A DNA stretch of 64,000 bases from an uncultured archaeon (GCA_964537835.1 CAZICS010000002.1:10356-74355); one strand, 5' to 3'. Counted from the first letter of the stretch, positions 36,741-52,773 are shown. Numbers and translations: made by a program. The notes: a model not told the origin generated them from the sequence alone.

Positions 36741-37550
36741 ATGGGCATAATTGAGGTAATTTCAAGGAGTTTAAGAGAAATGCTCTGGCCGAGAAGGTTT
36801 CTTCCTTTCTTCCTCTTATACCTCATCTTCTCGCTTTCCTTGTTGATATTTCTTTTGCCAATACTTTCCAGAGTTCCATCTCTTTATACTTCTCCTTCTT
36901 CAGTTGACATACAAATCTTCTATGCCAATTTTGCTGGTATGGCAATAGTTTTAATAGCTACAGTGTTGGTAAACATTTGGTTTAGTGGTGCCTTAATTTG
37001 GGATATAAAATCGAAGAAAGGTTTTGAAAAATGCTTGAATTATTCTAAAAAGATTTACTTGCAAATGTTTGCTCTTTACCTGGTCATTTGCATTTTGCTT
37101 TTGTTTACCTTCTTCCTCAAGAATTTTTCGATAATATTCCAAATCCTCATAGACTGGATTTTTATCTTCGCTTTGCCAGCTGTTGTCATAAAAAAGGATA
37201 GCTTTGACTTTGCTTTAGCAAGGAGCTTTAGCCTGGTAAAGAAAAAAGTCTTCAGTACTTTTTCTTTCTGGGCATTAACGCGATTCATAATTTTTATCAT
37301 ATTCCTATTCTCCCTTTTCATTTCAACGGCAATCCTTTTGCCCATATTTTCCGAGCTTAGGTTCGTTATTTCTTCGACTCAAACATTTCAGTCTTATGAG
37401 GTTACAAGAGCAATTTCTTTAATCCTCCAGAACTATCACTTATTAGTAATAGAGGCAATAGTCGTATCTTTCTTCATTTCGATAATGTACGTATTTAACC
37501 TAATTTCAAAAACTTACTATTTTCTTGAAATTTCGAAAAAAATTAGATGA
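36741..37550 (+). CDS. Hypothetical polytopic membrane protein
   Basis: Six or more hydrophobic segments; no motif recognised. Confidence 0.4.
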   Translation: MGIIEVISRSLREMLWPRRFLPFFLLYLIFSLSLLIFLLPILSRVPSLYTSPSSVDIQIFYANFAGMAIVLIATVLVNIWFSGALIWDIKSKKGFEKCLNYSKKIYLQMFALYLVICILLLFTFFLKNFSIIFQILIDWIFIFALPAVVIKKDSFDFALARSFSLVKKKVFSTFSFWALTRFIIFIIFLFSLFISTAILLPIFSELRFVISSTQTFQSYEVTRAISLILQNYHLLVIEAIVVSFFISIMYVFNLISKTYYFLEISKKIR

Positions 37551-38607
37551 TTTCTAACTTTTTAAGAACTTTTTCAACCTCTTTTTCCTTTCCTTTCTTT
37601 ATTTTTAGCTCATCGAGTATGGTATACCTTTTTCTCATTTTTGAAGCATGAGTTACTGCTTTAATCAAAATCTTGCGAGGAATTTCTATCTCTCTATAGT
37701 TTGTAGGAAGCTTTAAAGTTTTGAGAACCTCTTTAACAAATTCAAAATCTTTTCCTTGATAATAGCTCATTATTAAAGTCCCCAAAGCGACTTTTTCTCC
37801 ATGTAAAGCTTGGCTTGAGGGATAGAGCCAATCTATTGCATGAGCGAATAAATGCTCAGAGCCTGAGCATGGTCTAGAAGAGCCAGCTATACACATTGCA
37901 TAACCACAGCTTATCAAAGCTTCTGTTAAGAGCCTTACTGCCGACTCATAGTTTTCTTTATATCTTGATGCATTTTCCATTATGACAGAAGCTGCAAGAG
38001 AAGTTATTTGAGCTGCATACTCCCCATAATATTCTCCTTTTCTTTCCTTTGCAAGTTCCCAATCAGTTACTGCAGTATACTTTGCTATAACATCTCCAGC
38101 ACCTGAAGCAAAAAATCTAAAGGGAGCTTTGGCCAAATACTTCATATCAGCGACTATAGCAGCAGGTGGGTCTGAAAATAAGGAATGTTTTTTCTTTCTT
38201 TTAAAAAGACTCGAACAAGCAGAAGCTATGCCATCGTGCGAAGGAATAGTTGGAATGCTTAAATAAGGTATTTTGAGCTTGAAGGCAGCAGTTTTTGCAA
38301 TATCTATATTCTTCCCTCCTCCGATTCCCAATAAAACTTGAGCTTTTAAAGCCTTAGCTTTTTTCTCCACTTTTTTAACGTTTGAAAAATCTGCTTTGTT
38401 TACGATGAATGAACTAACTTCAAATCCATTTATTCTTAGGATTTTCTCTATTCTTTTTCCAGCAAGTTCAGAAGTTAAAGGTCCATGAACTAAGAAAGCA
38501 GAGAAAACCCCAAGCTCTTCCAAGAGATTCGGTATGGTTTTAATCGCATTCTTTCCTATTGCTATTCTCCAGGGTATTTTTATTAGATGGACCTTATGGA
38601 AAGGCAT
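37543..38607 (-). CDS. egsA: sn-Glycerol-1-phosphate dehydrogenase
   Basis: Fe/Zn-ADH-like fold: GIGGGKNIDIAK, PSHDGIAS and SGSEHLFAH...LHGEKV. Lies adjacent to the GGGP synthase gene. Confidence 0.8.
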   Translation of the reverse strand: MPFHKVHLIKIPWRIAIGKNAIKTIPNLLEELGVFSAFLVHGPLTSELAGKRIEKILRINGFEVSSFIVNKADFSNVKKVEKKAKALKAQVLLGIGGGKNIDIAKTAAFKLKIPYLSIPTIPSHDGIASACSSLFKRKKKHSLFSDPPAAIVADMKYLAKAPFRFFASGAGDVIAKYTAVTDWELAKERKGEYYGEYAAQITSLAASVIMENASRYKENYESAVRLLTEALISCGYAMCIAGSSRPCSGSEHLFAHAIDWLYPSSQALHGEKVALGTLIMSYYQGKDFEFVKEVLKTLKLPTNYREIEIPRKILIKAVTHASKMRKRYTILDELKIKKGKEKEVEKVLKKLEII

Positions 38608-39338
38608 TATACCCTTTTATACACTTCTTTAGCAAACCTATAAATATCTTTTGGTTTTTGTTCGAAGTGAGTGCTTATTACCGGCTTAGTTCCTAAATCA
38701 AGCAAGAGTTTCAATTCTTCCAAGCTCCTAATTCCACCGCCTGCATGAAGAACCTTGTCGCTTGATAAAATCTCTCTAGCTCTTTTTATTAATTTTATCC
38801 TTTTACTCACCGGTACCCTTGCTCCAGACCCTCCTTCTACGTAAACTCCATAACAAGCTTTATTCTTCTCTAGATAATTTTCTATGCAAGCTAAAGCATC
38901 CTCATCGCTTATCCTAGCAGCTCCTGTAAAATCTCCAACGCTCGTTCCCGGTCCTAGGATTAGATAGCCAAAATCTAGCTCATAAGGAGGAGAGTAAGTA
39001 TATAAAAATCTGGTTGCAAGCTTTCCAAGTTTTGTGTACAGGCGAGCAAGAGAGTTTTTAAAAGAAGGAGTTTTGTTCAGTAACTCTGGTCTTAGGATAT
39101 ACTTAGCATCTTTTCCAGCCAACGCATGCCAAACTTGTCCTGGAAATAAGTATCTTTCTTCCAAACCTTCTTTTTCAAGCTTTTTTAACCAAAAGCTTAT
39201 GGCTTTAGAAGAGCCTTTAGTAGTTCCAACCCAAAAATCACAAACCTCTTTAATCATTTCTTTATGCTTAACGGTTTCTTCAAACATTCTTTCTGCTAAT
39301 AAAGGCTTATCAGGGTCGTAGAGTATGCAAAATTTCAT
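38607..39338 (-). CDS. Geranylgeranylglyceryl phosphate synthase (PcrB/GGGPS family)
   Basis: YDPDKP N-terminal motif, YVEGGSG and GGGIRSLEE phosphate-binding motifs. Its stop overlaps the egsA start by 1 nt (shared base 38607). Confidence 0.75.
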   Translation of the reverse strand: MKFCILYDPDKPLLAERMFEETVKHKEMIKEVCDFWVGTTKGSSKAISFWLKKLEKEGLEERYLFPGQVWHALAGKDAKYILRPELLNKTPSFKNSLARLYTKLGKLATRFLYTYSPPYELDFGYLILGPGTSVGDFTGAARISDEDALACIENYLEKNKACYGVYVEGGSGARVPVSKRIKLIKRAREILSSDKVLHAGGGIRSLEELKLLLDLGTKPVISTHFEQKPKDIYRFAKEVYKRV

Positions 39339-39413
39339 CGGATAGATATTCGATTTAAAAATTTTAAATCTTCTGGTACCAAGGATTTAAGGTTTACTCC
39401 AATTATTAGAAAT

Positions 39414-40553
39414 ATGAGCCTAAGCTTGAGGCTTAGAAACAAGCTAGAGATTTTCGGTCTTGGAGTAAAATATGGGAAGAATGCAAAAATTATTGGCAAA
39501 AAATATAACCTTCAAAACTTGATCGGAGCCAGGGAAGCTGAAAAAATTATCGAAAGGCTTTATGCTCAAGAGCATGAAATTTTAAAGATTATTAAGAGAA
39601 AGCTTAAAGAAACTAGACCGCCTTGGTTTATCAGAAACATAACCCTTTCTGCCTATGCTTCCAACCAAAATTATGAAAAAACTTTTTCTGAGGAATGTTT
39701 ATACGACATGATAACAGGGAGTGCATTCCTTTATCCAGGAGGGGATTCAGAAGATGATTTTTGCGATAGCTATCTGGAAAGTTTTATCAATTCAAACGAA
39801 AAATATGAGAGAATCTTGGATTTGTTAAGGGATGCTAAAAATTTAATTAGAATTTCTTCAAGGAATAGAGAAGCATCGAATTTGGCTAAAGCTGCTCATT
39901 ACTTGCTTACTGAAGGTTCAAGGAGGCTTAGAAGAAGAAGTAAAAGGGCTTTTGAAGAGTATTCGAGAAGAAAAAGAGAAAAATTAGACCCCATACAAGC
40001 AAAAGATTTTTACTACAGATTTTGTTTAAGAAAAGGAAGAATAGAAGAAGTGAGAAAGAACTTAGTCTCTCTCGAAAAAATTTTAGAAACCCAAAAAAAG
40101 CTTGGAGAAATAGGGGCTACATGGGCTGTGGTAAGCCATTTGTTGGCTGGTGGAGAGGAAAGATACTTAAAAGATTTGGAGAAATTTTACTTGAACGGAA
40201 CAAGCCTTTTAAATTTGGCCGCAGATGACTTAAAAGAAATAGAGGAAGATTTTGCTTATGATCCTAAAAGTAAGGTTGGGATAAAAAATCCTGCAAACGT
40301 TTTGGCTCTTAAGATGGTCTCAGAAGGTTATGATTATTTAAGCTTGAGAAAGTTGAAGAATTACCTGAAGGAAAATGCAACTGAAATTTCTAGGATGATG
40401 TTGTTGTATGCAGAAAATTTAGAGAATAGCTATGAAAACTTAAAGGATTCTCCGTATAAAGAAGATTTACCTTACGTGGTTGGTTTTATGAAAGAGATTG
40501 TTGAAAGAGAGGTTAAAAAATTCGAGAAGAAGTTCAAGATTAAAGTAAAGTAA
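39414..40553 (+). CDS. Hypothetical all-helical soluble protein embedded in the ether-lipid gene cluster
   Basis: Long ORF with a charged helical composition. No canonical DDxxD or other motif recognised. Confidence 0.45.
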   Translation: MSLSLRLRNKLEIFGLGVKYGKNAKIIGKKYNLQNLIGAREAEKIIERLYAQEHEILKIIKRKLKETRPPWFIRNITLSAYASNQNYEKTFSEECLYDMITGSAFLYPGGDSEDDFCDSYLESFINSNEKYERILDLLRDAKNLIRISSRNREASNLAKAAHYLLTEGSRRLRRRSKRAFEEYSRRKREKLDPIQAKDFYYRFCLRKGRIEEVRKNLVSLEKILETQKKLGEIGATWAVVSHLLAGGEERYLKDLEKFYLNGTSLLNLAADDLKEIEEDFAYDPKSKVGIKNPANVLALKMVSEGYDYLSLRKLKNYLKENATEISRMMLLYAENLENSYENLKDSPYKEDLPYVVGFMKEIVEREVKKFEKKFKIKVK

Positions 40554-40569
40554 TGGTCTAAGCTTACTT

Positions 40570-41742
40570 TTAACTATTAGACTCTCTCTTAGAATTATTC
40601 ATTTCGGTTTTTTTCTTGATGGCAGCTAGGAAAGTTTTAAGTTTCAGCTTACCTTCAAAGAGTTGGTCAATTAGTTCGGGTTTTCCTTCAGCTATATCAA
40701 AAAGAAAGTCCAAAACACTTTTGTTGTAAAAGTTTTCTATACCATCTTTAGGAATTACTATTTTTTCACCAAATTCCTCAACCCATTTCTTATCAAAATC
40801 TTCAAAGGAAGAATTGGTAATGTAAAGCTTTGCAGCAAGCTCCCCTGTTATCATCGCATAAGTAAGACCATCTCCTTCTAAAGGATGGACAAAACCACCT
40901 TCTTCTCCTATTATTACCCAATTTTTATCGCAATGCTTTGATTTGAAAAATTCTGCAGTTTTTGGACTAACTATTAGTGCAGCTCTCTCTTCTATATACT
41001 TTGGTTTTCTAATTTTTTCCTTAAGAAGTGGATGAACCTGAAGCAATTCATTCAAAGATTTTTTAAGATTCCCCTTGTATTCTACCTCGCATCCCAATCC
41101 TACCAAAACATAATCCTCTTTTGGAATAAGCCAACCATAACCCTTTCCAACATATTTATCATCGAGGAAAAGCAGGTACCAACCATCTTCAAAATACTCA
41201 TCTATATATTCCTTTTCAAACCCTAGTTTGAGGTCATAAGTCTTGCTAAGATGCTTTATCGGAAATGCCCCTATTTTTTTCTTTCTTAAGATTCCATTGA
41301 CCCCACCAGCTCCTACAGCATTTTCGACTTTAAATTCTCCCTCTTTAGTAGAAAGTATAAATCCCCCTCTTTTCTCTTCTACATCGTTTACCTTAAGCTT
41401 TTTCCATTCAGCTCCTTCATCCAATGCTTTTTCTAGTAAAAACCAATCAAATTTTTTTCTCGAAACTGAGCCGTGAGTTTTTTTATAAGTCCATCTAATC
41501 TTCTTGTAGGTAGGCGAGTACACTTCGCAAAAATTTAAATCCCTTTCGATTATATCAACAGGGACTGTATATCTCGATAAAAGAGTTGAACTTAAGATGC
41601 CTCCGCAAACTTTTTCTCTTGGTTGAGTATGGTCGAATATTATTACATCAACACCTTTTCTAGCTAGATAATAGGCACAAGTACTCCCTGCGGGCCCTCC
41701 TCCTATTATCCCAACTTCGTATTTCTTTCTCATACTCCTCAC
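40570..41742 (-). CDS. Geranylgeranyl reductase family flavoprotein
   Basis: FAD motif YEVGIIGGGPAGSTCAYYLARKG followed by CGG. About 390 aa. Confidence 0.8.
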   Translation of the reverse strand: MRSMRKKYEVGIIGGGPAGSTCAYYLARKGVDVIIFDHTQPREKVCGGILSSTLLSRYTVPVDIIERDLNFCEVYSPTYKKIRWTYKKTHGSVSRKKFDWFLLEKALDEGAEWKKLKVNDVEEKRGGFILSTKEGEFKVENAVGAGGVNGILRKKKIGAFPIKHLSKTYDLKLGFEKEYIDEYFEDGWYLLFLDDKYVGKGYGWLIPKEDYVLVGLGCEVEYKGNLKKSLNELLQVHPLLKEKIRKPKYIEERAALIVSPKTAEFFKSKHCDKNWVIIGEEGGFVHPLEGDGLTYAMITGELAAKLYITNSSFEDFDKKWVEEFGEKIVIPKDGIENFYNKSVLDFLFDIAEGKPELIDQLFEGKLKLKTFLAAIKKKTEMNNSKRESNS

Positions 41743-41764: not shown

Positions 41765-42289
41765 TTAATCTTTTTCGACTATGTGATATTTGCAGTATTT
41801 GTCTCCTTCACTCATTCTTTTAAGTGGTATAAGCTTGAACTTAGGTCCGAAAAGTCTCTCTACTATACCTCTATTGTATTCCTCACACATTTTACAAATG
41901 AAGGGTTCGTGAAACTTCTTTATTATTTCGTTGAATGGGCAATTTACGATGAATGCATGAGTTTCTCCTTTTTCATCCTTTACTATTTTTAGGTCTAACC
42001 CAAGAAGCATTCCAGCTAGCCGTGTAAGCCTTTTCCTGTTCTTGAAAGTTTTTTTCATGTTGAAAAGCTTTTCCAACCTTTTTATATCATTCTTCCCTAA
42101 TTCTCTTATTTCTCTCGAGATTACTCTCGCAGCAATACCATAACCCATTGAATTGATCAAATGCTTGGCTAGGATGCATATTATATTTCCTAAAGTAATG
42201 CTCGTCGATCTAATCTTTTCTTTTTCTGGTACTTTTGAAAAAATTTTTTCCATTAAGTTTTTCTCCTTTTTATTCTCCTTAAATTCCAT
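41765..42289 (-). CDS. Hypothetical protein, possibly V4R-like Cys-containing small-molecule-binding domain
   Basis: C-terminal CPFNE...CKMCEEYNRGIVERLFG...CKYHI pattern. The assignment is weak. Confidence 0.3.
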   Translation of the reverse strand: MEFKENKKEKNLMEKIFSKVPEKEKIRSTSITLGNIICILAKHLINSMGYGIAARVISREIRELGKNDIKRLEKLFNMKKTFKNRKRLTRLAGMLLGLDLKIVKDEKGETHAFIVNCPFNEIIKKFHEPFICKMCEEYNRGIVERLFGPKFKLIPLKRMSEGDKYCKYHIVEKD

Positions 42290-42320
42290 CCTCTCACTTC
42301 TAAAGTGTTTTTAGATAAAT

Positions 42321-42872
42321 TTATTTCTTTTTCTCGAACGCTGGGCAGCTTGGACATCTTTCTTCATCATCAAATCTTAACCCGCAAGGTGCATACTCTG
42401 GATCATAGGGATAGAAAAATCTTAGGGGCAGATACTTCGGGACTATAATTGAATTGCTTATGTTTACTTCCACATGCCTAATTCCAGGCTCTGACCTTAT
42501 TTGCTTGTTTAAAAACTCTTCAAGCTGAGCAATATCCCTAGCAACCATGTTGATTATTAAATTATGATTTCCTGAAGTTTTTGCTAAATGAAAAACTAAA
42601 GGGCAATTTCTCAACTTTCTTACTATCAGATTAACTCCATCAGCATCAGCTTCTACTCCAATACAAGCACTCAACGGATAAAGATTTTCTGGATTTATCA
42701 AGGCACTTATGGTTATAACCTTCTTTTTTATTAACCTATCAACCCTCTCTTTAACTGCAGCAGGAGTTACCTTAAGCTTTTTTGCCAGCTCTGTAAGCTT
42801 AATCCTCCCATTCTTCAAAAGTTCTGAGATTATAAACCTATTGGTTTCATCTAAAAAATTTTTAGATTTCAT
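42321..42872 (-). CDS. Lrp/AsnC-type HTH regulator with C-terminal Cys-rich extension
   Basis: HTH IISELLKNGRIKLTELAKKLKVTPAAVKERVDRL, a RAM-like domain and a C-terminal CGLRFDDEERCPSCP. Confidence 0.7.
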   Translation of the reverse strand: MKSKNFLDETNRFIISELLKNGRIKLTELAKKLKVTPAAVKERVDRLIKKKVITISALINPENLYPLSACIGVEADADGVNLIVRKLRNCPLVFHLAKTSGNHNLIINMVARDIAQLEEFLNKQIRSEPGIRHVEVNISNSIIVPKYLPLRFFYPYDPEYAPCGLRFDDEERCPSCPAFEKKK

Positions 42873-42971
42873 AATTTTTCACTAAAAATTTTTCTAACTT
42901 TAAATATTTAAATTTTACTTTTTATAGGAAAAGCTTAAATACTCTAAAAATGTTTAAATATACACGAGAAG

Positions 42972-43472
42972 ATGGAAGTAATAAATGAAACACAGATTTG
43001 CAAATTGTGCTTAGAACCTTATACAACATTTATTTGTGTAGATTGCTTGACAAGAGATATTAAAAAATTCCTGTTTTCAGATAATCCAGAGCTTAGGAAA
43101 GAATTTGAATCCTTCCATAAAAAATTTTCAAAATTCTTTTTATTAACTAGTCCAGAAAAAAAAGTAAAATGCATAAGGTGTAAAAGGTATTTTGATGTGA
43201 TGGTTTGTCCCTATTGCTACCTAAATGAACTTTTCTGGTGGCTTTTTGAAAAAGATATAAATTTAGCTAGAAAATTAGCTCAATTCTTTAACTTCGATTT
43301 TTTAGGTACTGGTTATGTCTTAAAATTAAGGAAAGTTGAACCTATAATAATAGCCGAGGAGAAGGAAAAAGATTTGGAAATTGGGATTTGTGAAGCTTGT
43401 GGTCAAGCTTATGATGGACTGAAAAAAATCGAAGGAAAATGGTTATGCGAAAGTTGTAGGGATGAGATTTAA
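42972..43472 (+). CDS. Hypothetical multi-zinc-ribbon protein
   Basis: Three CxxC...CxxC pairs: CKLC..CVDC, CIRC..CPYC and CEAC..CESC. Confidence 0.5.
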   Translation: MEVINETQICKLCLEPYTTFICVDCLTRDIKKFLFSDNPELRKEFESFHKKFSKFFLLTSPEKKVKCIRCKRYFDVMVCPYCYLNELFWWLFEKDINLARKLAQFFNFDFLGTGYVLKLRKVEPIIIAEEKEKDLEIGICEACGQAYDGLKKIEGKWLCESCRDEI

Positions 43473-43554: not shown

Positions 43555-43809
43555 TTAACTAACCGCTAGCTTTCTTATTTCTATTAACAATCTTTCTATA
43601 ATTTTTAGTCTTTCTATCAAAGTTTCATTCTGAATCTTCAAGCTTTCCATTTGAGTTAAGATTAAATCCATCTTCGCTTTAAGATTTTCTAGAGTTGCCG
43701 GTTCTAAGCTTGTTTCTAAAGCCTTTTCCTCTGGAATTTCAGGCAGTTCTTCTATTGGTTCTTCTTTCTTCCTTCTAAAGATACCCTTCATCTTTGAAAA
43801 TATTCCCAT
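43555..43809 (-). CDS. Small coiled-coil protein with basic amphipathic N-terminus (unknown function)
   Basis: MGIFSKMKGIFRRKKEEP..., then an acidic linker, then heptad-like LENLKAKMDLILTQMESLKIQNETLIERLKIIERLLIEIRKL. Its start overlaps the upstream stop by 1 nt. Confidence 0.55.
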   Translation of the reverse strand: MGIFSKMKGIFRRKKEEPIEELPEIPEEKALETSLEPATLENLKAKMDLILTQMESLKIQNETLIERLKIIERLLIEIRKLAVS

Positions 43810-44324
43810 TATCTTACCCTCTCAGATACAGGCAATTTGAATAGAGCTCTTAATTCTAAGTGCAATTCTTCAATAAGTCTATTACACAAATGAATATAAC
43901 TTCTTTTTACTTCTTCATAAAAAAGCTTGTGATAAACCCATACAAAAGCTTTGTAAAGAGGAGAACGTTGGAAAAATGATTTTAAATCATACTCGGTTCT
44001 TAGTCTTCCGCTTATTCTAATAGTTACCTTACCCTTTTTACTTGGATCAGAAGGTTGCAAGCCCTGAATAGTTATTTCAATCATCATTCCAGTCCTTGCA
44101 TCTATCCCTTTCCTTACATACATTCTCATATAAAAAGGTCTTGGGTCAGAGCTTATATCCCACCTAAAATCTCTTTCCCATAGATCTATAGTTTCAACTT
44201 GGAAAATCCTTCCAAGCATTCCTCTTAAAACTCTACAAACCCTAAAAGGATCAGGGCCGCTATATTCGATAGTTAAAGTCCTTTCTGGGGCTAGGCAATC
44301 ATCTTCGAAAACCCAGCGTGGCAT
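43809..44324 (-). CDS. Uncharacterised protein, paralog B of a tandem pair
   Basis: Shares the motifs DDCLA, Y.GP[DN]P, ERDF.WD, GK..IRI.GR[IL]RTEY and YH[KR]L.YEE with the upstream gene. The two genes abut with no intergenic gap. Confidence 0.6.
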   Translation of the reverse strand: MPRWVFEDDCLAPERTLTIEYSGPDPFRVCRVLRGMLGRIFQVETIDLWERDFRWDISSDPRPFYMRMYVRKGIDARTGMMIEITIQGLQPSDPSKKGKVTIRISGRLRTEYDLKSFFQRSPLYKAFVWVYHKLFYEEVKRSYIHLCNRLIEELHLELRALFKLPVSERVR

Positions 44325-44879
44325 TTATCTCTCCCTTGGAAGAATATTGAGGAAAGCTTTTAGCTCATCTTGAAACCTTAGAAGCCATTCCCTGCATTGA
44401 TTTTTGTATCTTTGTCTTTTCTCTTCATAGATTAGCCTATGATACAAAACTCTAAACATTTCATAGAATAAGCTTCTTTGCCAAAGAGTATCCTGAGGAT
44501 ATTCTGTTCTTATCCTTCCCTCTATCCTTATCTTTGCCTTTCCTTCCCTTCCAAATTCCTTGCTTGGTCGGGCTTCACCTTCTAGAGTAACTATTACCTG
44601 AATAAAAGAAAATCTATCCATATCCTTTATGAGTTCAAACCTTACCCTAAACTTTTCTCCTGCTTCACTCTTATCCCAAACAAAGTCTCTTTCTTGCAAT
44701 TCCCCAGGATCGTGCCTAAAAATTGTTGCAAAAAGCTCTTTTATTTTTTCATACAAACGCTGAGGATTTGGACCTTCGTAAGTTAAAAGCAAGTAAGGAA
44801 CTCCAGGTAAAACGCTTCCTGGAGCAGTAGCTAAACAATCATCATGTATAACTAGCTTAGTTCTTGCAAACACTGGCAT
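44325..44879 (-). CDS. Uncharacterised protein, paralog A of a tandem pair
   Basis: As above. It is the first gene of the minus-strand operon. Confidence 0.6.
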   Translation of the reverse strand: MPVFARTKLVIHDDCLATAPGSVLPGVPYLLLTYEGPNPQRLYEKIKELFATIFRHDPGELQERDFVWDKSEAGEKFRVRFELIKDMDRFSFIQVIVTLEGEARPSKEFGREGKAKIRIEGRIRTEYPQDTLWQRSLFYEMFRVLYHRLIYEEKRQRYKNQCREWLLRFQDELKAFLNILPRER

Positions 44880-44910
44880 ATTTAAAATTTGGTTTTAAGA
44901 AACTAAAAAG

Positions 44911-44918
44911 TTATAAAT
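44911..44918. promoter_or_regulatory. Candidate bidirectional TATA box (TTATAAAT) in the 59-bp divergent intergenic region
   Basis: A-rich BRE-like tracts lie on both sides (AAAAAG upstream on +, CCAAAA upstream on -). The element centre is about 25 nt from ATG 44939 (+) and about 35 nt from ATG 44879 (-). Confidence 0.4.
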
Positions 44919-44938
44919 TTTTGGTAGAAATTTTATTC

Positions 44939-45148
44939 ATGCTCGAAAAGCTTGAAAAAATTTTAGAATTGATTAAATTGGTAACCTTACCGCCTCTAAT
45001 TTCTAAGCTTCTGGGAGCAATCCTAATGTTTTTTGGAAGCATTTTTATCTTTGGCTTAGTTTATGCTGGAAATCAGAAAAACTTTTTATTCCAGCTTTTC
45101 TTCGGACCGATATTTATTTATCTTGGATGGGAGTTACTTAAATTATGA
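44939..45148 (+). CDS. Small two-TM membrane protein (69 aa)
   Basis: MLEKLEKILELIKLVTLPPLISKLLGAILMFFGSIFIFGLVY...FFGPIFIYLGWELLKL. The ORF-track start at 44864 is a TTG inside the opposite gene. Confidence 0.5.
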   Translation: MLEKLEKILELIKLVTLPPLISKLLGAILMFFGSIFIFGLVYAGNQKNFLFQLFFGPIFIYLGWELLKL

Positions 45149-45309
45149 TAAACAAGATAGCCGGAGGATTTTTATTTTTCATTGGTTTGCTAATAGTAGT
45201 TAAGTTTCCTTTTACTGGCTCTAAATACCAACCATTTGAAATGCAAAGAGCAGGAGTATTGTTTGGAATACTTTTGATGATAATTGGTTTAGTTTTGCTT
45301 CGACTATAA
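45145..45309 (+). CDS. Small two-TM membrane protein (54 aa), below the ORF-track cutoff
   Basis: Hand translation gives MINKIAGGFLFFIGLLIVVKFPFTGSKYQPFEMQRAGVLFGILLMIIGLVLLRL*. It has an ATGA overlap with the preceding gene. Confidence 0.5.
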   Translation: MINKIAGGFLFFIGLLIVVKFPFTGSKYQPFEMQRAGVLFGILLMIIGLVLLRL

Positions 45310-45311
45310 TT

Positions 45312-47150
45312 TTGAATAATAAGATTTCAAAAAAACAAATTTATATTATGCCAATAATTATTCCAGAATTTCCTGCACCAAGACCATGGTTTGTTATCCC
45401 TCCAGAGAGACCAGAGGCTAAACTCAAGTTTGAGCTAGGAGAGCTAATAAACGCTGTTCCTTATGAAGGGGAGATGCTCCTAGATTTTACTTCTTCCTTA
45501 GGAAAAGTTAGCGAAGTTTTTTATGCTCTATCTTTTCAACTACCAAAATGGGGATTTTTTACTGCAAAAATAGAAGAAAGTATTTTTGTATCTCCTGTTT
45601 TTAGAGAATACTATGAGATGACTCTAAGACAAAAAGAAGCTTTGGAAGCAAGAATTAAAGAGGGTTTAGCAAGTGTTGCAAGAGCCATTTCAGATTTTGA
45701 GCTAGCTTTGCATGATTTGAGAAGGTATAAGGAATACATGAATCATTTTCTTAAAATTGAAAAAGGAAAAAGACTGATTAAAGAAGGAAAAAAAGAAGAA
45801 GGAGAAAAGCTTGTAAGAGAAGCAGAACAAACTCTTAAAGCAATTTTTATAGATCAAGTTGATGTTCACACAGGAGAAGGGATTGCTTTAAAGCTAATTG
45901 CTCCAAGATGGCCTACTATTATAGCTGATTTCATGAAGTTAACTGACGAGGATACAGACCCAAAAGAAATTGCTAAAAAATATGGGGTTTCTGAGGCCCA
46001 AGGCGTTGTTCTAGCCACTAAAAACAAGCTTTACAAGGAATGGAGAGAGATGTTCAAGAAAAATGTGAGAGAAAGATATAAAAGGATTTTAAGCGTGGTT
46101 GAAATGAGGAAAGCTTCTATAGAGGAATATAGAGAGATGCTTAAACCAACCATTGCAAGGTATAAAATGATTACAGATGCCCTCAGTACTCCTCCTGGAA
46201 GAGCAGGCATATTAAAAACTGCCCACATGAGGCCGGATGCTCAAGCAATTTCTGTGGATAAAGTTACCCTTTGGGCCTGGAAACCATTTCAGGTTGCTGA
46301 AAAGTATAAGATTACTAGAGAATACTTTGACCAAATTCCAGTTTCGAAGGCAGGCTTTACTAGGAGCGAGATTTTGGAGATTAAAAAGCATTTGGGAGAA
46401 AAATGGGACGAAAAAGTTTCTGGATTGCCTCAAGAACCTTCCATAGATAGGGTTGTTAGAGCCTTTATTCCAATAATAGAAAAAGAATATGGAGTTGAGA
46501 TAACAGCTTATGATTTATATAAAGCTAGGGAAATGCTTTTGGATCAATTTAGAAAATCTTTGCCAGCTCTAGGCGGAAAAGAACCATGGGTTTTTAGCCC
46601 ATACTTCACTTTTATTTGCATTCCGATGGAAAGAACTGTTCTAAGATTGCCCAATGGCGCTCAAGTCGAAGATTTGTGGATAGAGAATTTGTATGCCGCA
46701 ACCAGAACTCAGAACTTGATACTCGTTAATTGTTTGGAGCTTATAGCAAGGGATAAGCAGTTGGAGCAGTACATAAACAGAATGCTTGGAGAGATGGGGG
46801 AAAAGGAAGGGAAAATTCTCTCGATAGAAAAAATAGTTGAAGAAAGATATAAGGAAGTTTACAAAACTCTTGAAGAGATAGAAAAAGAAGAGAAAGAAAG
46901 AGAGCTAAAGGAAAAATTGGAGAAAGCTGAGGAATCTAGGAAAAGGTTTAAGGAATTAGGTAAGAAAATTAGATTGGGTATAGGAAAGTTCTTCGCAACT
47001 TTTGGCCTAGAGCTTCGATTCTTTAGAGCTGTGGGGCCTTACGAGTTTGCCATGCACCATAGGCTTGCAAAATATCATCAAAGGGAGACGGGAGGGAATT
47101 TTGCAAGAATAGTTAGATACTTGAAGAAAAGTTTTGGGGTGCCCGGTTAG
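45312..47150 (+). CDS. Large uncharacterised, largely helical protein (about 600 aa)
   Basis: Uninterrupted 612-codon ORF; an alternative ATG lies at 45348. Pro-rich N-terminus PIIIPEFPAPRPWFVIPPERP, long predicted coiled-coil stretches and a KE-rich segment near the C-terminus. No NTP-binding or catalytic motif recognised. Confidence 0.6.
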   Translation: MNNKISKKQIYIMPIIIPEFPAPRPWFVIPPERPEAKLKFELGELINAVPYEGEMLLDFTSSLGKVSEVFYALSFQLPKWGFFTAKIEESIFVSPVFREYYEMTLRQKEALEARIKEGLASVARAISDFELALHDLRRYKEYMNHFLKIEKGKRLIKEGKKEEGEKLVREAEQTLKAIFIDQVDVHTGEGIALKLIAPRWPTIIADFMKLTDEDTDPKEIAKKYGVSEAQGVVLATKNKLYKEWREMFKKNVRERYKRILSVVEMRKASIEEYREMLKPTIARYKMITDALSTPPGRAGILKTAHMRPDAQAISVDKVTLWAWKPFQVAEKYKITREYFDQIPVSKAGFTRSEILEIKKHLGEKWDEKVSGLPQEPSIDRVVRAFIPIIEKEYGVEITAYDLYKAREMLLDQFRKSLPALGGKEPWVFSPYFTFICIPMERTVLRLPNGAQVEDLWIENLYAATRTQNLILVNCLELIARDKQLEQYINRMLGEMGEKEGKILSIEKIVEERYKEVYKTLEEIEKEEKERELKEKLEKAEESRKRFKELGKKIRLGIGKFFATFGLELRFFRAVGPYEFAMHHRLAKYHQRETGGNFARIVRYLKKSFGVPG

Positions 47151-47151
47151 T

Positions 47152-48942
47152 ATGGCTTATTTGATTGGAGTTTCGAGCGGAATATTCGGGGCAGTGCCTG
47201 AAGCCGAAAGAATTCAGTATGCAGGATTGGCGAAGAAAGCTGAGTATTGTATAACTAAAGGCGTGCAGTTTGTTCAGATAGATTTGGAATCTGTCTCTGA
47301 GTTTAAGGCACCAAATTTGAAAGAAGATATGGAGAAGATAAGGAAGTTAGGGGTAAGGTATGGGATTCACTCTGAAACTCGGGCTTTTGGAGTTGAGGTT
47401 GCTGAGTTAGATTCTGCTATAGAAACGGATTATAAGTTTGGGCATGAAAGGTTGAGAGAGATTCTGGAAAAATCCGGAGAAATAAAAAGCGAGTATGTTT
47501 TAATCCATTCTTCTGAATCTCACCCATTTTTATTACTCGAAAGGCATCTACAGCCAGCAGCTTTAGTTGATTTCTTCGGAAATCCTTTAAGAGAATTCTT
47601 AGAAGAAAATAAAGATTTACTGGATTGGGCTCTAGGAGGAGGGGTTGAAGATATTTCTGAATGTGTATATGATGTATGGTTAAAAAAGAAGAAAGGGATA
47701 AGCGTAGAGGATATAAAAGGAGCTTTTAAAGCAAGTGGTCTCAATCCCCAAGATTTTATATGGATTGAAGTTATTGGAAGGCCTTTAGCAGAAATTCTAA
47801 GAGGAAGAATCTTAGATAGAGTCGAAACATGGGAGATAGAAACTGGAAAAGATTATGAGAGTTTGGAACCTGACAAGAAAAAAATAGTCAATGAACAAAT
47901 TAAGAGAAGTTTAAATGTTTTGGTCTCTGATATAAGAACAGCTCTCTTAAACTATGTTCAATCAAGAACTCTGCATTATGGTCCTGAGAGAATAGCTTAC
48001 TATTTCATTGCAAAATGGATGGAAAAAACTAGTGATCCTCTCTGGAATAACATAGTAAATGCAACCATAGAATTTTTTGCTAGGAGCGAGAAAAAAAGCG
48101 TAGAAGAATGGCTGAGAGAAAAAGGAATAAAGGAGAAAAGTATAGACGATGAAAATTTTAGGAAGTACAGCTATCTATGGGTTCCTGCAGTTTCCGCTAA
48201 ATACATATGGGGCCATTTGAACCAAGATAAAAATCCAAAGAAAACTTACTATGATTTAAAAAAAATAATAAAGAAGTATAACATGCCTCTAGTTCTAGAA
48301 ACTCCGATGGCTCATAGAGGCATAGAAGAATGGCTCCGCTTACCAAATCCAATTCAAATGTATTATCTGGCTAGACAAGTTAATGAAGAGGCCGGTTTCT
48401 TCTGCCTAGCTGTAGCGATGGATTTTGAGCATATGTTGAGCATAAGATTAGACCCAGAGGTTGTAATAGATTGCTTACCAGAGGAGGCAGGAAAATTTGT
48501 AATCGTTCTTCATGTAGGTTATCCCTCCCCTCTAGCCCCCGCTCACATACCAATTCCTTTGGGTTCGGAGCAGCAATTGTACCTTTACAAGCTAATGTAT
48601 AAGCTGAGAAAGAAAGGTTTTGGGAAGGATGAGAAAGATTACTACATAGTTTTTGAGAGAGGAGGAGGTCCAGACCCTATCAAGCAATCCATAATTGCTT
48701 TAAGGAAAATAGTTGAATTTTTGGAAAAAGATGTACCGCCCGAAAAACTACCGATGGAATTCTATGGTTTTGCTACTGGCGAAATAGCTTCTTTGGAAAG
48801 GCAAAGAGCAATAATATTCGAGCACGCTCTAGACCCTTTGAAAGGTTTAGTTTATGTACCCGAAGAGGAGCATACTTTCCTGGGAAGGGCTGCCACCGAA
48901 AGAGTTGCCCCTGAAAAATGGAAGAAAGAAGAGTTGAGATAA
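47152..48942 (+). CDS. Expanded xylose-isomerase-like (AP-endonuclease-2 / sugar-phosphate isomerase) TIM-barrel protein with a large insertion
   Basis: The strand-end motif series YGIHSE, VLIHSS, LVLETPM, AMDFEHM, VLHVGYP and VFERGGG parallels the HAP / FHPG / ENM / YDVAH / HIHD series of the neighbouring canonical 320-aa enzyme. The ATG lies 1 nt after the upstream stop. Confidence 0.55.
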   Translation: MAYLIGVSSGIFGAVPEAERIQYAGLAKKAEYCITKGVQFVQIDLESVSEFKAPNLKEDMEKIRKLGVRYGIHSETRAFGVEVAELDSAIETDYKFGHERLREILEKSGEIKSEYVLIHSSESHPFLLLERHLQPAALVDFFGNPLREFLEENKDLLDWALGGGVEDISECVYDVWLKKKKGISVEDIKGAFKASGLNPQDFIWIEVIGRPLAEILRGRILDRVETWEIETGKDYESLEPDKKKIVNEQIKRSLNVLVSDIRTALLNYVQSRTLHYGPERIAYYFIAKWMEKTSDPLWNNIVNATIEFFARSEKKSVEEWLREKGIKEKSIDDENFRKYSYLWVPAVSAKYIWGHLNQDKNPKKTYYDLKKIIKKYNMPLVLETPMAHRGIEEWLRLPNPIQMYYLARQVNEEAGFFCLAVAMDFEHMLSIRLDPEVVIDCLPEEAGKFVIVLHVGYPSPLAPAHIPIPLGSEQQLYLYKLMYKLRKKGFGKDEKDYYIVFERGGGPDPIKQSIIALRKIVEFLEKDVPPEKLPMEFYGFATGEIASLERQRAIIFEHALDPLKGLVYVPEEEHTFLGRAATERVAPEKWKKEELR

Positions 48943-49905
48943 CTAAAAGCTGTCTGGAATGCCAAAAATTTCTCTTAATTTTTTCAGGCTAAGCCTGAAC
49001 TCAACTTCTAAAGGAGTGACTTCATAGATCACAAGCTTTTTCCTTCCCGCAACTTTTAAAATCGCTTCGTTCGGAACCTTTCCCTTCCCTATTAGCGGAA
49101 CCAAGTGCAAATCTCCTATTCCTTCTGCATAATCCACTCTACCATAAAGTCCTGGCTTGCAAAGGTTGTCGTGAATGTGGAGCTTTACAACCTGGTCGGC
49201 TATTTCCATAAAATTTTTAACCTGGTCAAACTTATAATAGCTTGCAGCCAGCGCAGCATGAGCTACATCGTAGGTTATTTTCAAAAACTTATTCCCAACA
49301 GCTTTAACCACTTCTTTGGTTTCAGAAGGATGGGTTAATAAATAGCCAACATCTATCCTTGGTTCCATGTTTTCTATGGTAATGGTTAAACCATTCTTTT
49401 CTGCATAGCTTGCAAGTTTTTTTAAGCTTTCTATCAAATATTTTTTTGCTTCATGCAAGTAGTTGGATAAAAATCTCTCCTTCCCCAAACTAAGGCCCTT
49501 GTAAACGTAGCCTGGATGGAAAGTTACAAACTCAGCTTCTAGCAAGTAAGCCAAATCTATGGTCGAAAGCGCATAGTTTAGAGAAGTCTTTCTTTCCTCC
49601 TTACTTAAAGAGCACAGATTTAAATCCGGCATTAGCTTCTCGTTTATATGGGGGGCGTGAATGGTTAGCTTAAAACCTCTTTTATCGGCAACTCTTCTGA
49701 TCTTGAGAGCAACTTGCTTTTTAATTCCTTTTCTGCTGGCTCCAAAAACTTCTGGGAATGCACTTATTCCAAGCTCGACGTACCACTCTTCCCTCCTTTT
49801 CAATCTCTCAAAAATTTCTAAGAACATGTCGAGAATCTTAAACCTCTTACTCAAAGGATAGTTCCAGAGCAAGCGGCGAGAAGCATTAACTCCAACCTTA
49901 ATCAT
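48943..49905 (-). CDS. Sugar phosphate isomerase/epimerase (xylose isomerase-like TIM barrel)
   Basis: LTIHAPH, FVTFHPGY, ITIENME, ITYDVAHAALA, LHIHDN and GDLH motifs. Confidence 0.7.
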   Translation of the reverse strand: MIKVGVNASRRLLWNYPLSKRFKILDMFLEIFERLKRREEWYVELGISAFPEVFGASRKGIKKQVALKIRRVADKRGFKLTIHAPHINEKLMPDLNLCSLSKEERKTSLNYALSTIDLAYLLEAEFVTFHPGYVYKGLSLGKERFLSNYLHEAKKYLIESLKKLASYAEKNGLTITIENMEPRIDVGYLLTHPSETKEVVKAVGNKFLKITYDVAHAALAASYYKFDQVKNFMEIADQVVKLHIHDNLCKPGLYGRVDYAEGIGDLHLVPLIGKGKVPNEAILKVAGRKKLVIYEVTPLEVEFRLSLKKLREIFGIPDSF

Positions 49906-50570: not shown

Positions 50571-51419
50571 ATGGCTTTGGAAAAGCTAGAAGAGGAATTG
50601 GAAAAAGCTGAGAAATTGGTCGAAGAGGTTAAGGAAGTAAAAAAACCTTCTAAGGAAGTTTATTCAAAAGTCATAGCTTTTACTAATGAAGCTAGAAAGC
50701 AGTACGGTGAGATAATTAAATCAGTTTTAATCTTTGGTTCTGCGGCCAGAGGGATGATGAAGGAGGGTAGCGATATAGATGTTTGGGTCATTCTGGATGA
50801 TACGGCCACAAAAAGCTCGGAGGATTTGCAAAAGGTTAACACCCAGCTTTACCTAATTGCTCAAGAGCTTAAGGATTTACACATCCAAACAACCACGCTT
50901 ACAGAATTCTGGAATTGGATAAAGCTCGGCTCCCCAGAGCTAATAAATTTTTTGAGGTATGGATTAGCCATCTATGATACAGGTTTTATCAAGCCCGTTC
51001 AAAGAATGCTCCAGATGGGTTTGATACCGCCTAGCGAAGAAGCTGTAAAGCTAAAGGCAAGGGCTAGCGAAGCAAGAATCAAGAAGATCGAGCTTGACTT
51101 AAAATCGATGATTTTTGAGTTGAGGTATGCGGCAACCGATGCTTGCCAAGCTGTAATAATGTATTATTATAAGGCTCAGCCAGACCAAAAGGCTATCCCA
51201 GGCTTTTTGGAAAAGCTCGTGAAGGAGAAAAAATTAGAACCAGAATTTATAGAAAAGTTTAAGGAGTTGGATAAGCTCTGGAAAGATATCGATCATAAAA
51301 TAGTTAAGGAAGTAGATCCAGCTTACTTGGAAAAAGCACTAAAGCTTGCAAAGGAAATAATCGAGAGGATGAAAAAATTATTGCCAAAAGATATTATGGA
51401 AGAGATGGAAGGTGAGTAG
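50571..51419 (+). CDS. Minimal-nucleotidyltransferase (pol-beta fold) domain fused to a HEPN-like helical domain; degenerate W-x4-H paralog
   Basis: NTase motif IFGSAARGMMKEGSDIDVWVILDD. C-terminal helical domain with LWKDIDHK at the position of the Rx4H motif in the paralog. Coiled-coil N-terminal leader. Confidence 0.65.
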   Translation: MALEKLEEELEKAEKLVEEVKEVKKPSKEVYSKVIAFTNEARKQYGEIIKSVLIFGSAARGMMKEGSDIDVWVILDDTATKSSEDLQKVNTQLYLIAQELKDLHIQTTTLTEFWNWIKLGSPELINFLRYGLAIYDTGFIKPVQRMLQMGLIPPSEEAVKLKARASEARIKKIELDLKSMIFELRYAATDACQAVIMYYYKAQPDQKAIPGFLEKLVKEKKLEPEFIEKFKELDKLWKDIDHKIVKEVDPAYLEKALKLAKEIIERMKKLLPKDIMEEMEGE

Positions 51420-51642: not shown

Positions 51643-52773
51643 ATGGCAAAAAAAGAAAAAAAGAAGGAAGAGAAGCTTGAGACAAAGGAGGAAGTTTTGG
51701 AAAAGGTGAAAAAATTTGCGAAGAAGGTTTTAGACAAGTATGGAAAGTATGTTAAGTGCATAGTGATGATGGGTTCTGTCGCAAGAGAAGAGTTTAAGCC
51801 GAAGAGCGACGTAGATGTTTTTGTTGTCATAGACGATGCTAGCTTTAAAATAACTCCAGAATTTCAAGAAAAGCTTGACGAGGATTTGGAGCAAATAGCC
51901 AAGAAAATTTCCGAAAGAATTTCTGTTCAGCCTAGCTATACTCTAACCGAATTCTGGGATTATGCAAGAGTTTGTCATCCAATAATTTATAACTTTATAA
52001 AAGAGGGGGTTGCAATTTATGATACAGGCTTCTTTACACCAATAAAAAAACTTTTAGAGATGGGGAGAATTCCTGCTACAAGGGAAGCTATAGAAAGCTA
52101 CATGGAAGGGGCTCCTAAAAAGCTAATGAGAGCAAAGACTGTTAAGCTCTTAATGCTTGCTGAAGATTGCTATTATGCTATGCTGAATACTGCACAAGCC
52201 GTCCTAATGTTCATGGGTCTAGCTCCTCCTGTTCCGAGTAAAGCCTATCAAGAAGTTAAGAAATATCTGGTCGAGCCGGGTATTTTAGAGCCAGAGTATG
52301 CAGAATGGTTGAGAGAAATAATCGAAATCAGGAAAAAGATTGAGCATAAAGAGCTAATGGATGTGAGCGGAGCTTTTGTCGACGAGTGGATCGATAAAGC
52401 GGAAAAGTTCGTTAACAAGATGTTTAGCTTGCTCAATGCTTTGGAGCTGAGGAAAAGGGAAAAGATTTTAGAAAGGACGCATGAAGTGCTTTATAAGGCA
52501 GCTATCACCGCTTTAAAAACTTTGAAGAAAGAACCTAAGAAAGCGGAAGAGATTCCTTTGGCTTTCAAGCGAGAGTTCATCGATAAAAAGCTTGTAGAAG
52601 GCTATTACTGGGACATTTGGAAGCGAATCGAAGATTTGAAGAAGCTAGCAGACCAAAAGAAAATAGACCAAATTCCCGATAAGGAAGTTTATGAAATGCG
52701 TGAATATGTGAGAAGGCTTATTCGTGAGCTAGCTAGAGTTTTGAAGAAGAAAGAAAGGAAGGGAAAGAAGTAA
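51643..52773 (+). CDS. Minimal-nucleotidyltransferase domain fused to a HEPN-like helical domain (Rx4H retained) plus a C-terminal helical extension
   Basis: NTase motif MMGSVAREEFKPKSDVDVFVVIDD. HEPN-like IEIRKKIEHK (R-x4-H). It is a clear paralog of 50571..51419 (TLTEFW..., AIYDTGF..., IP...EA). Confidence 0.65.
   Translation: MAKKEKKKEEKLETKEEVLEKVKKFAKKVLDKYGKYVKCIVMMGSVAREEFKPKSDVDVFVVIDDASFKITPEFQEKLDEDLEQIAKKISERISVQPSYTLTEFWDYARVCHPIIYNFIKEGVAIYDTGFFTPIKKLLEMGRIPATREAIESYMEGAPKKLMRAKTVKLLMLAEDCYYAMLNTAQAVLMFMGLAPPVPSKAYQEVKKYLVEPGILEPEYAEWLREIIEIRKKIEHKELMDVSGAFVDEWIDKAEKFVNKMFSLLNALELRKREKILERTHEVLYKAAITALKTLKKEPKKAEEIPLAFKREFIDKKLVEGYYWDIWKRIEDLKKLADQKKIDQIPDKEVYEMREYVRRLIRELARVLKKKERKGKK

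Follow-up and report, generated by a model that had tools for sequence, protein, structure and literature searches.

The 64,000-nucleotide stretch of DNA analysed in this study (hereafter, the window) comes from an uncultured archaeon (GCA_964537835.1 CAZICS010000002.1:10356-74355) and carries, at positions 43555-48942, two divergent operons that an earlier note, made from the sequence alone, had put forward as an undescribed system of seven genes. These genes very probably constitute one functional module, which extends past those coordinates to two further genes, nt282 and nt376, and comprises about nine genes in all: cc84, p171 and p184 on the minus strand, and tm69, tm54, h600, tim596, nt282 and nt376 on the plus strand. 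The explanation that we favour, with somewhat less than even confidence, is that of a housekeeping module, inherited vertically in Aenigmatarchaeota and in some of the other DPANN archaea, which encodes one putative membrane-tethered complex with phosphodiester or nucleotidyl chemistry. The module is new as a system, and its individual domains come from known superfamilies, namely AP_endonuc_2/endonuclease IV (Endo IV), Pol-beta nucleotidyltransferase (NT) and HEPN. The function proposed for it is a prediction, and the Endo IV assignment draws on motif conservation and marginal E-values.

Conservation and organization of the module

The linkage of these genes was examined around h600 in a scan of one genome per GTDB species, in which 96 genomes contained a relative and 79 loci were retrieved. 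All locus titles naming a phylum gave Aenigmatarchaeota, with the exception of one Micrarchaeota, and the others read only "uncultured archaeon"; similarly, all source names giving an organism for the homologs of h600, tim596 and p184 were Aenigmatarchaeota, the rest being "hypothetical protein" or a few automatic JGI labels. Co-occurrence was counted with hidden Markov models (HMMs), only in loci whose contig reaches far enough. tim596 lies directly downstream of h600 in 68/70 loci, and upstream of h600 both members of the p184/p171 pair were found in 63 of 67 loci and at least one member in 66. An open reading frame (ORF) of the tm54 or tm69 type accompanies h600 in 70 of 78 loci, and cc84 does so in 52 of the 63 loci with enough upstream sequence. 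Where enough downstream sequence was available, at least one NT gene was present in 41/47 loci and two in 32/47. Neighbours unrelated to the module drop out fast, such as the genes for an Lrp/AsnC regulator (17/83 loci), zn166 (16/83), xi320 (7/83) and a putative geranylgeranyl reductase (3/83).

More distant relatives were obtained by searching a tim596 profile against 1.84 billion representative proteins, leading to loci L084-L089, one of which bears the label "DPANN group archaeon". Gene order and strand are altered in these loci, and the same families are adjacent. L085 and L086 encode h600-like and tm54-like proteins on one strand, opposite p184-like, p171-like and TIM-barrel (TIM) proteins, with an NT gene also downstream in L086. 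In L087 and L089 the order is h600-like, TIM and NT, while L084 has a tm54-like gene facing p184-like and p171-like genes, then TIM and NT, and L088 has a p184-like gene facing tm54-like and TIM genes. Matches to the nt376 HMM stand beside the TIM gene in L084, L086, L087 and L089, and matches to the tm54 HMM were detected in L084, L085 and L088. The linkage outlasts rearrangement in these loci and therefore points to functional coupling, not residual synteny. The proposal of the earlier note that the genes form one functional module is thus sustained, both by near-universal synteny and by a linkage that survives gene-order shuffling in distant DPANN lineages; the homologs of h600, p184/p171 and tim596 are co-localised, and the accidental linkage that the note had considered was not borne out.

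The ORF map reproduced the seven ORFs of the two operons, their couplings and the 59-bp divergent spacer described previously. On the minus strand, cc84 (43555-43809) and p171 (43809-44324) overlap by 1 nt, and p171 is separated from p184 (44325-44879) by a 0-nt gap. On the plus strand, tm69 (44939-45148) and tm54 (45145-45309) are coupled through an ATGA overlap, followed by h600 (45348-47150) and tim596 (47152-48942), whose ATG at 47152 lies 1 nt past the h600 stop at 47150. Starting from the ATG at 45348, h600 encodes 600 aa, and its homologs align end to end with matching N-termini; translation probably does not begin at the TTG at 45312. The ORF of 54 aa that had been found by hand is genuine, given that a 47-62 aa ORF with two transmembrane segments occupies the same position in most related loci. 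The extent of seven genes, in contrast, did not hold: two conserved members had been overlooked, the nucleotidyltransferase-HEPN pair nt282 (50571-51419) and nt376 (51643-52773), both on the plus strand, which are the best-conserved genes of the module. In most loci the NT genes directly follow tim596, whereas in the window xi320 and a membrane-protein gene are inserted between them.

The divergent control region (44880-44938) spans 59 bp, compared with a median spacer of 63 bp in 61 loci. It contains, on the plus strand at 44903-44918, a putative promoter upstream of the tm69 ATG, in which ctaaaaag (44903-44910), resembling a B recognition element (BRE), abuts the TATA-like ttataaat (44911-44918). 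The centre of the box lies ~24 nt from the tm69 ATG, an orientation and spacing that would be consistent with a leaderless plus-strand transcript, and 40/61 loci contain the motif TAAAA[AG], for the most part at a distance of 21-32 nt from the plus-strand ATG. A GTGAT-like Shine-Dalgarno sequence precedes p184 in many relatives and is absent from the window. A single symmetric TATA-like element serving both operons had been proposed; a TATA-like box is indeed present in the spacer, placed and oriented for the plus strand, and it may be used in both directions.

Predicted enzymes and structural proteins

No Pfam or NCBIfam family was found for any of the seven products of the two operons, and PDB sequence searches with h600, tim596 and p184 were empty; queries with single sequences and with profiles of h600, tim596 and p184/p171 against Pfam, NCBIfam and the PDB brought no significant match. 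PADLOC and PHROGs held no family for the core proteins, with only generic NT-domain and coiled-coil matches in PADLOC, and scans of PHROGs and IMG/VR revealed no viral relatives. A defence origin was rejected on the basis of PADLOC and a viral origin on that of PHROGs and IMG/VR, in line with the earlier opinion that this is not a classical defence or metabolic operon; the module is also universal in a housekeeping context. Confident matches of the 612-aa (h600), 184/171-aa and 84-aa proteins to characterised families, as named in the earlier note, were not found. Its description of the products as unrecognisable stands in that none of the seven has a Pfam or NCBIfam family; it does not stand for tim596, which resembles Endo IV, nor for p184/p171, which show a marginal likeness to SRPBCC and Cyt proteins. 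Walker A was absent from all seven products, as had been noted for the first six, and transmembrane segments were detected among them only in tm69 and tm54.

The product of tim596 appears to be a divergent metalloenzyme of the Endo IV type within the AP_endonuc_2 superfamily, as judged from motif conservation together with marginal E-values. Its full-length profile gave no match against the PDB and the window protein none against Pfam; AP_endonuc_2 was the only recurrent Pfam match in the family (8/50 members, best E 8e-5), and in distant members it covered the N-terminal third of the barrel (E 5e-7 and 3e-4). For a diverse profile, 135 members were aligned, the insertion (about residues 133-371) was deleted and 17 sequences were kept, chosen at <42% pairwise identity and being 26-42% identical to the window protein. 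The columns of G37, H73, H119, E383, D424, P458, H465, E502, G504 and G538 are invariant in these 17 sequences, with H427 and H454 conserved at >=90%. Among 177,635 distinct PDB sequences, the six best matches of this insertion-deleted profile were all endonuclease IV/AP endonuclease (E 0.0037-0.13), and the alignments set H73, H119, E383 and D424/H427 on Endo IV ligand positions. The nine-ligand pattern H,H,E,D,H,H,D,H,E (beta2-beta8) is represented in tim596 by eight of its nine residues, which are the most conserved of the family: H73 (beta2), H119 (beta3), E383 (beta4), D424 and H427 (beta5), H454 (beta6), H465 (beta7) and E502 (beta8). A comparison by hhalign of the full-length protein with the MJ1311-type family, which belongs to the same TIM-barrel superfamily, was non-significant (Prob 0.08%; split halves E 0.11-0.33); in the C-terminal half, E383, D424/H427, H454, H465 and E502 all fell into register with the ligands of that family.

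Compared with Endo IV (Nfo/Apn1), tim596 has double the length; a helical insertion of ~235 aa (about residues 135-370) separates the beta3 ligand from the beta4 ligand, and a conserved C-terminal extension adds ~90 aa. Its gene is always accompanied by those for h600 and the NT-HEPN proteins. Across the family, the insertion varies from 235 to 500 aa and is helical or coiled-coil, while the total length ranges from ~500 to 860 aa, the longer members having coiled-coil inserts; the insert of the 818-aa TIM protein of L084 matches Seryl_tRNA_N and V-SNARE-type profiles. The family is closed, comprising 214 clusters at 50% identity without bleed into the wider superfamily, and its few source labels are all Aenigmatarchaeota or DPANN. 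In its architecture tim596 is unprecedented. A second member of the same superfamily abuts it: xi320 (48943-49905, minus strand) is convergent with tim596 with zero intergenic bases and belongs to the MJ1311 family of xylose-isomerase-like TIM barrels (PDB 3wqo, E 4e-39), with the full H/H/E/D/H/H/D/H/E ligand pattern. xi320, in contrast to the highly derived tim596, is of ordinary size (320 aa) and clearly assignable, and is not a core member of the module.

The genes nt282 and nt376 encode fused proteins with an N-terminal Pol-beta-type nucleotidyltransferase (NTase) and a helical HEPN-type domain. The nt282 product matched the Pfam families NTP_transf_2 (E 1e-8) and HEPN (E 2.8e-4), and that of nt376 matched NTP_transf_2 and the N-domain of kanamycin NTase (E 3e-5). 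Both paralogs keep the GS..DxD and DD motifs, with catalytic motifs conserved at >=90%, and no other genes of the region are as well conserved as these two, which show 60-90% identity across the phylum, nt376 being the most conserved of the module. The Rx4H signature of HEPN RNases is present in nt376 as R230-H235 (>=90% conserved) and degenerate at the same place in nt282 (W237-H242). Retention of the Arg in only one of two NT-HEPN paralogs is a pattern typically seen where a heterodimer has one functional, composite site. In L084, the NT-HEPN protein (L084:10537-12096, 520 aa) carries an extra N-terminal helix-hairpin-helix (HhH) domain, with AF1548-like_C above the Pfam cut-off and HHH_5 just below. 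A role of the pair as CCA-adding enzyme was rejected, as the TIGR03671 match (E 5.5e-4) covers only ~70 N-terminal residues and scores 18.8 against a 281-bit cut-off.

The minimal Pol-beta NTase (GS..DxD) at the N-terminus of nt282 and nt376 is shared with the HEPN-minimal nucleotidyltransferase (HEPN-MNT, type VII) toxin-antitoxin (TA) systems, with fused FhepTA and with kanamycin nucleotidyltransferase, and the helical HEPN-type domain, with Rx4H kept in nt376, likewise recalls the type VII systems. However, nt282 and nt376 form a paralogous pair on the chromosome, in a housekeeping context, tied to five other families, and their distribution (41/47 loci, as given above) is not patchy or mobile. 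A closer counterpart is the DPANN-specific MNT-HEPN fusion cluster cls.004259 (NEQ050), found in a housekeeping context and named as a DPANN priority target by Makarova, Wolf and Koonin in 2019 (PMC6393860). Compared with that published description, nt282 and nt376 share the architecture, the taxon range and the unusual conservation, and they are very likely members of this cluster. The cluster was treated there as a single orphan gene, and that paper describes no linked genes for a stalk protein, for mini-proteins with transmembrane segments, for an alpha/beta pair or for an enzyme resembling Endo IV; no later literature on this gene was found after the 2019 listing.

The predicted stalk protein h600 has 394 homologs and was modelled by AlphaFold2 from an alignment of 50 sequences (predicted local distance difference test, pLDDT, 80.9; predicted template modelling score, pTM, 0.73). 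Strands in the N-terminal part (42-49 and 71-81), in the middle (301-313) and in the C-terminal third (419-454) alternate with helices. Two of the helices are very long (86-145 and 216-280), and enclosed by them is a small helical region at 149-215 (RWPTIIADF), within which lies the densest invariant run of the protein (F167...R187 W188 P189 T190...L198). The secondary-structure map suggests a predicted alpha/beta head formed by the N- and C-terminal strands, an antiparallel coiled-coil stalk of ~60 residues and a conserved apex. A Foldseek search against the PDB gave no match at E <= 1e-3, the best being the dynein stalk, SMC/JetC coiled coils and RipA (E >= 0.15, template modelling (TM) score <= 0.18), and the search against viral models (BFVD) gave nothing meaningful, with one match of low TM score. 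Only coiled-coil noise came up in these searches, and the matches to levivirus maturation proteins had TM < 0.14. Weak coiled-coil matches to PbeC (3e-5) and LmuB (9e-4) were obtained in PADLOC, and the Walker A pattern [AG]x4GK[ST] and Pfam matches to SMC or AAA are absent. h600 is without detectable sequence or fold relative outside its own family and, on the basis of its model, represents a candidate new fold.

As a functional analogy only, h600 may be compared with Mre11-Rad50/SbcCD and the SMC stalk proteins, since here too the gene of a putative metal-dependent phosphoesterase adjoins that of a protein with a head from N- and C-terminal parts, very long helices and a conserved distal domain, and the weak structure and profile matches of h600 are to SMC, JetC, Rad50 and LmuB coiled coils. 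However, h600 lacks Walker A/B, the ABC signature and the zinc hook, its stalk has only ~60 residues, no fold match is significant, and the phosphoesterase is a predicted TIM barrel, not a calcineurin-like fold. An ESCRT-III/PspA relationship was considered for cc84 and h600 in view of their helical hairpins and of an N-terminus of the form MGxF..RRKK, but the analogy lacked support and was abandoned: no Pfam Snf7 or PspA match was found, neither was among the top PDB fold matches, and cc84 is far too short. A phage PspA/IM30 protein appeared only as noise in BFVD (E 0.48).

p184 and p171 were confirmed as the paralogs they had been taken for (33% identity, E = 2e-29), and p184 has 330 homologs. 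The AlphaFold2 model of p184 (pLDDT 79, pTM 0.69) shows a beta-beta-alpha-beta4 arrangement followed by a 46-residue C-terminal helix, and p171 is predicted to share this alpha/beta fold with a long C-terminal helix. Foldseek returned 13 PDB matches at E <= 1e-3, led by Cyt1Aa and volvatoxin and followed by SRPBCC/Bet v 1 and Ups1/PRELID1 proteins, at E ~1e-4 to 1e-3, TM scores of 0.13-0.34 and root-mean-square deviations of 8-18 Å, with a probability up to 1.0 for the Cyt toxins; a TM score >= 0.5 to an SRPBCC/Cyt-type fold was not reached, and the joint p184/p171 profile gave no Pfam or PDB sequence match. In the model, p184 shares with Cyt/volvatoxin and SRPBCC/Bet v 1-like proteins (Ups1/PRELID1, PYR/PYL, CoxG) a helix-packed antiparallel sheet and a long C-terminal helix. 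It differs from them in having one helix rather than two between strands, with TM scores of 0.2-0.34, and p184/p171 lack membership of those sequence families and always occur as a paralog pair with invariant Cys. A fold of this class hints at lipid or membrane binding. Both proteins retain, close to the N-terminus, a DDC motif; its Cys15, together with Cys162 in the C-terminal helix, is invariant in the p184 alignment, which includes the p171 of the window, and the two residues could be a redox or metal site.

In the 84-aa cc84, a basic amphipathic motif at the N-terminus (MGIFSKMKGIFRRKK) is joined by an acidic/Pro linker to a C-terminal coiled coil. The alignment of its family shows a conserved MGIFS..F.RRKK N-terminus, a variable linker and a conserved coiled coil; the hydrophobic moment is 0.56-0.67 at residues 2-13, and Pfam gave no match. 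Both tm69 and tm54 are mini-proteins with two transmembrane segments, the latter a hairpin with a conserved FP...YQP loop. The relatives of tm69 mostly measure 47-49 aa, and its N-terminal 20 aa may be lineage-specific or untranslated. A c-ring-like role for tm54 was rejected, as no conserved membrane-embedded carboxylate was found. In one clade (L040, L041, L042, L044 and L047), 51-100 bp separate p184 and h600 and no mini-ORF with transmembrane segments is present there; in these relatives the membrane anchors are therefore dispensable or encoded elsewhere.

Proposed function and alternative explanations

In the favoured explanation, the complex would make or break phosphodiester or nucleotidyl-linked groups, most likely on nucleic-acid ends. 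This mechanism is raised as a tentative possibility because the Endo-IV-type site, the Pol-beta NTase and the HEPN Rx4H motif all act on such linkages, and because one lineage adds an HhH nucleic-acid-binding domain to the NT protein. The products of the coupled genes h600 and tim596, presumably made 1:1, may form a stalk-plus-phosphodiesterase pair, loosely like Rad50-Mre11 without the ATPase. An nt282-nt376 heterodimer with one complete HEPN motif would add nucleotidyl groups and possibly cleave RNA, and the Endo-IV-like tim596 would remove or trim phosphodiester-linked groups. The complex would act at the inner face of the membrane, processing 3' ends or nucleotidylated groups of nucleic acid or, less likely, of protein, and tm54/tm69, cc84 and a p184/p171 heterodimer would anchor or regulate it there. 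The earlier note had suggested a membrane-associated assembly or remodelling machine. The composition on which it drew holds (small membrane anchors, a coiled-coil or amphipathic protein, a large helical protein resembling a scaffold and a TIM-barrel-type enzyme that depends on metal), but the chemistry to which all three of the catalytic domains recognised here point is phosphodiester or nucleotidyl chemistry rather than membrane remodelling.

Several observations weigh against this explanation. AP_endonuc_2 fell below the Pfam gathering score in every tim596 member seen (30.0 against 31.1 bits for P0422), the link to Endo IV is statistically marginal (best E 0.0037), and the ninth ligand is gone, the Asp of the beta7 D-x-H pair, before H465, being replaced by Ala. 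AP_endonuc_2 also holds sugar isomerases and epimerases. Pol-beta NTases of the kanamycin nucleotidyltransferase (KNTase)/MNT type usually modify small molecules or proteins, not polynucleotides, and the HhH fusion was found in one lineage only. The p184/p171 pair or h600 is absent from the sequenced neighbourhood of L084, L087 and L089, with no h600 homolog within 18 kb in L084. A nucleic-acid role also leaves the lipid-binding-like fold of p184/p171 and the membrane anchors unexplained.

An unlikely alternative, nearest to the idea of the earlier note, is a machine for membrane lipids or envelope precursors, in which p184/p171 bind lipid or isoprenoid, the NT pair caps or activates a head-group, tim596 is a sugar-phosphate isomerase or a lipid-linked phosphodiesterase, and h600 is a scaffold on tm54/tm69. 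The best fold matches of p184 are indeed lipid or membrane binders (Cyt1Aa, volvatoxin, Ups1/PRELID1 and Bet v 1/SRPBCC), although these matches are marginal (E ~1e-4, TM 0.2-0.34, root-mean-square deviation > 8 Å), and two conserved transmembrane mini-proteins and the amphipathic N-terminus of cc84 would fit such a role. The AP_endonuc_2 superfamily takes in sugar isomerases and the phosphodiesterase CbiR, and one JGI source labels a tim596 homolog "sugar phosphate isomerase/epimerase"; however, the PDB matches of tim596 are exclusively to Endo IV, with no epimerases, and the extra His ligands typical of Endo IV are kept. NTases of the KNTase type act on small-molecule hydroxyls. The conserved HEPN Rx4H motif would have no role in such a machine. 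As for the archaeal lipid genes 3-7 kb upstream in the window, a link to them was rejected since they are not syntenic elsewhere, the reductase gene being rare near h600 as stated above. A domesticated HEPN-MNT switch, which we consider improbable, would instead account for the co-inheritance of NT, HEPN and phosphodiesterase: the NT domains would AMPylate HEPN (or h600, p184 or p171) and silence the RNase, the Endo-IV-like enzyme would be the de-AMPylase eraser, and the membrane subunits would couple the switch to an envelope or host-contact signal. The fused MNT-HEPN architecture, the Rx4H motif of nt376 and the best NCBIfam/PADLOC matches, which are to MntA-type NTases, agree with this, and a phosphodiesterase is chemically suited to the hydrolysis of Tyr-O-AMP. 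A precedent exists in type VII TA systems, where two reports (PMC7641770, PMC13000451) describe oligo-AMPylation of a Tyr near the Rx4-6H motif, in the fused form too. However, no known TA system is universal at 60-90% identity across a phylum, no Endo IV-type de-AMPylase is known, and nt282 is without the Arg of the Rx4H motif.

Most of the loci come from one phylum in which synteny may not have decayed, and the genes for Lrp, zn166 and the YchF GTPase are also partly syntenic with the module, so that unrelated lineage-specific genes adjacent by shared ancestry, with no common function, might be considered. Such an accidental neighbourhood is very improbable in view of the adjacency of the same families in distant DPANN despite changed order and strand, the quick loss of unrelated neighbours and the coupling at the level of start and stop codons. 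Hardly credible is a defence island or mobile-element cargo: defence and TA loci often contain HEPN and MNT domains, and h600 has the weak PADLOC coiled-coil matches mentioned above, but at least 79 species-level genomes have the module at the same locus beside the same partner genes, and its sequences are highly conserved; neither integrase nor transposase genes were found, GC content is uniform across the window (31-39%), no relatives are present on viral contigs, and the core proteins lack a PADLOC or PHROG family. Returning to the favoured phosphodiester or nucleotidyl chemistry, a more specific form of it is also unlikely: a machine anchored in the membrane for the processing of nucleic acids, specific to DPANN and without counterpart in other archaea, providing the partner set of the housekeeping MNT-HEPN. 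Such a machine could work at the membrane on the ends of RNA or DNA, possibly of host-acquired material, by trimming, healing and tailing them, and its core would be a new fold, that of h600, together with an Endo IV barrel remodelled by a coiled-coil insertion.

Genomic surroundings and significance

The source of the window is a chromosome of a thermophilic member of the Aenigmatarchaeota (DPANN). A Candidatus Aenigmatarchaeota metagenome-assembled genome (MAG) is the annotated source of a protein with 99% identity to tim596, and the window is ordinary chromosome, with genes for reverse gyrase, Lhr helicase, GatD/GatE, glutamine synthetase, S-adenosylmethionine (SAM) synthetase and a YchF-type GTPase. 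Thermophily is deduced from the reverse gyrase encoded in the window (28182-31784, plus strand; 1200 aa with helicase, topoisomerase IA and zf_Rg domains), a marker of (hyper)thermophily that agrees with the hot-spring and hydrothermal MAG relatives. No tRNA (ARAGORN) or Rfam family at the gathering threshold was detected in the whole 64 kb.

Archaeal membrane-lipid genes occupy 37543-41742. They encode a Fe-ADH_2 protein resembling glycerol-1-phosphate dehydrogenase (37543-38607), a protein resembling PcrB/geranylgeranylglyceryl phosphate synthase (38607-39338; a weak match below the Pfam cut-off) and a 390-aa ORF (40570-41742) taken by eye from its sequence as a putative geranylgeranyl reductase; a 379-aa ORF without Pfam match (39414-40553) lies among them. 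Beside the module, a trio of genes (41765-43472) encodes the ATC_hydrolase-like p174 (41765-42289), the Lrp/AsnC regulator (42321-42872), which could be a local regulator, and zn166 (42972-43472), a protein with several CxxC pairs and no Pfam family. This trio adjoins the module in 11-17 related loci, p174 having the lowest count (11/83). The YchF/Obg-like GTPase (MMR_HSR1, YGR210-like_G4 and TGS domains) is encoded at 35527-36687 in the window, ~7 kb off, and in two groundwater relatives, where it adjoins cc84 (L001:5252-6394) or is separated from it by two ABC-transporter genes (L003:3638-4780). On the other side of the module, a 393-aa ORF (57749-58930, plus strand) combines a LAGLIDADG-like domain with winged-helix/ArsR-type helix-turn-helix domains and could be a regulator derived from a homing endonuclease.

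The DPANN archaea form a large radiation of tiny symbionts, most of them uncultured, and the core genes specific to their lineages are almost wholly uncharacterised. No prior description of this combination of families was found in the literature, where the only precedent was a list from 2019 that counts the MNT-HEPN gene among the DPANN dark matter. Within Aenigmatarchaeota the module is essentially universal, and it is also found in other DPANN; its conservation is on par with that of information-processing genes, and at least one of its proteins has a confident model but no structural neighbour. Through it, a housekeeping MNT-HEPN orphan gains genomic partners and a testable biochemistry, comprising a putative Endo-IV-type phosphodiesterase, two NTases and a HEPN motif. 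The module could bring to light a process peculiar to symbionts with reduced genomes, or a new, ATPase-free way to build a phosphodiesterase-stalk complex.

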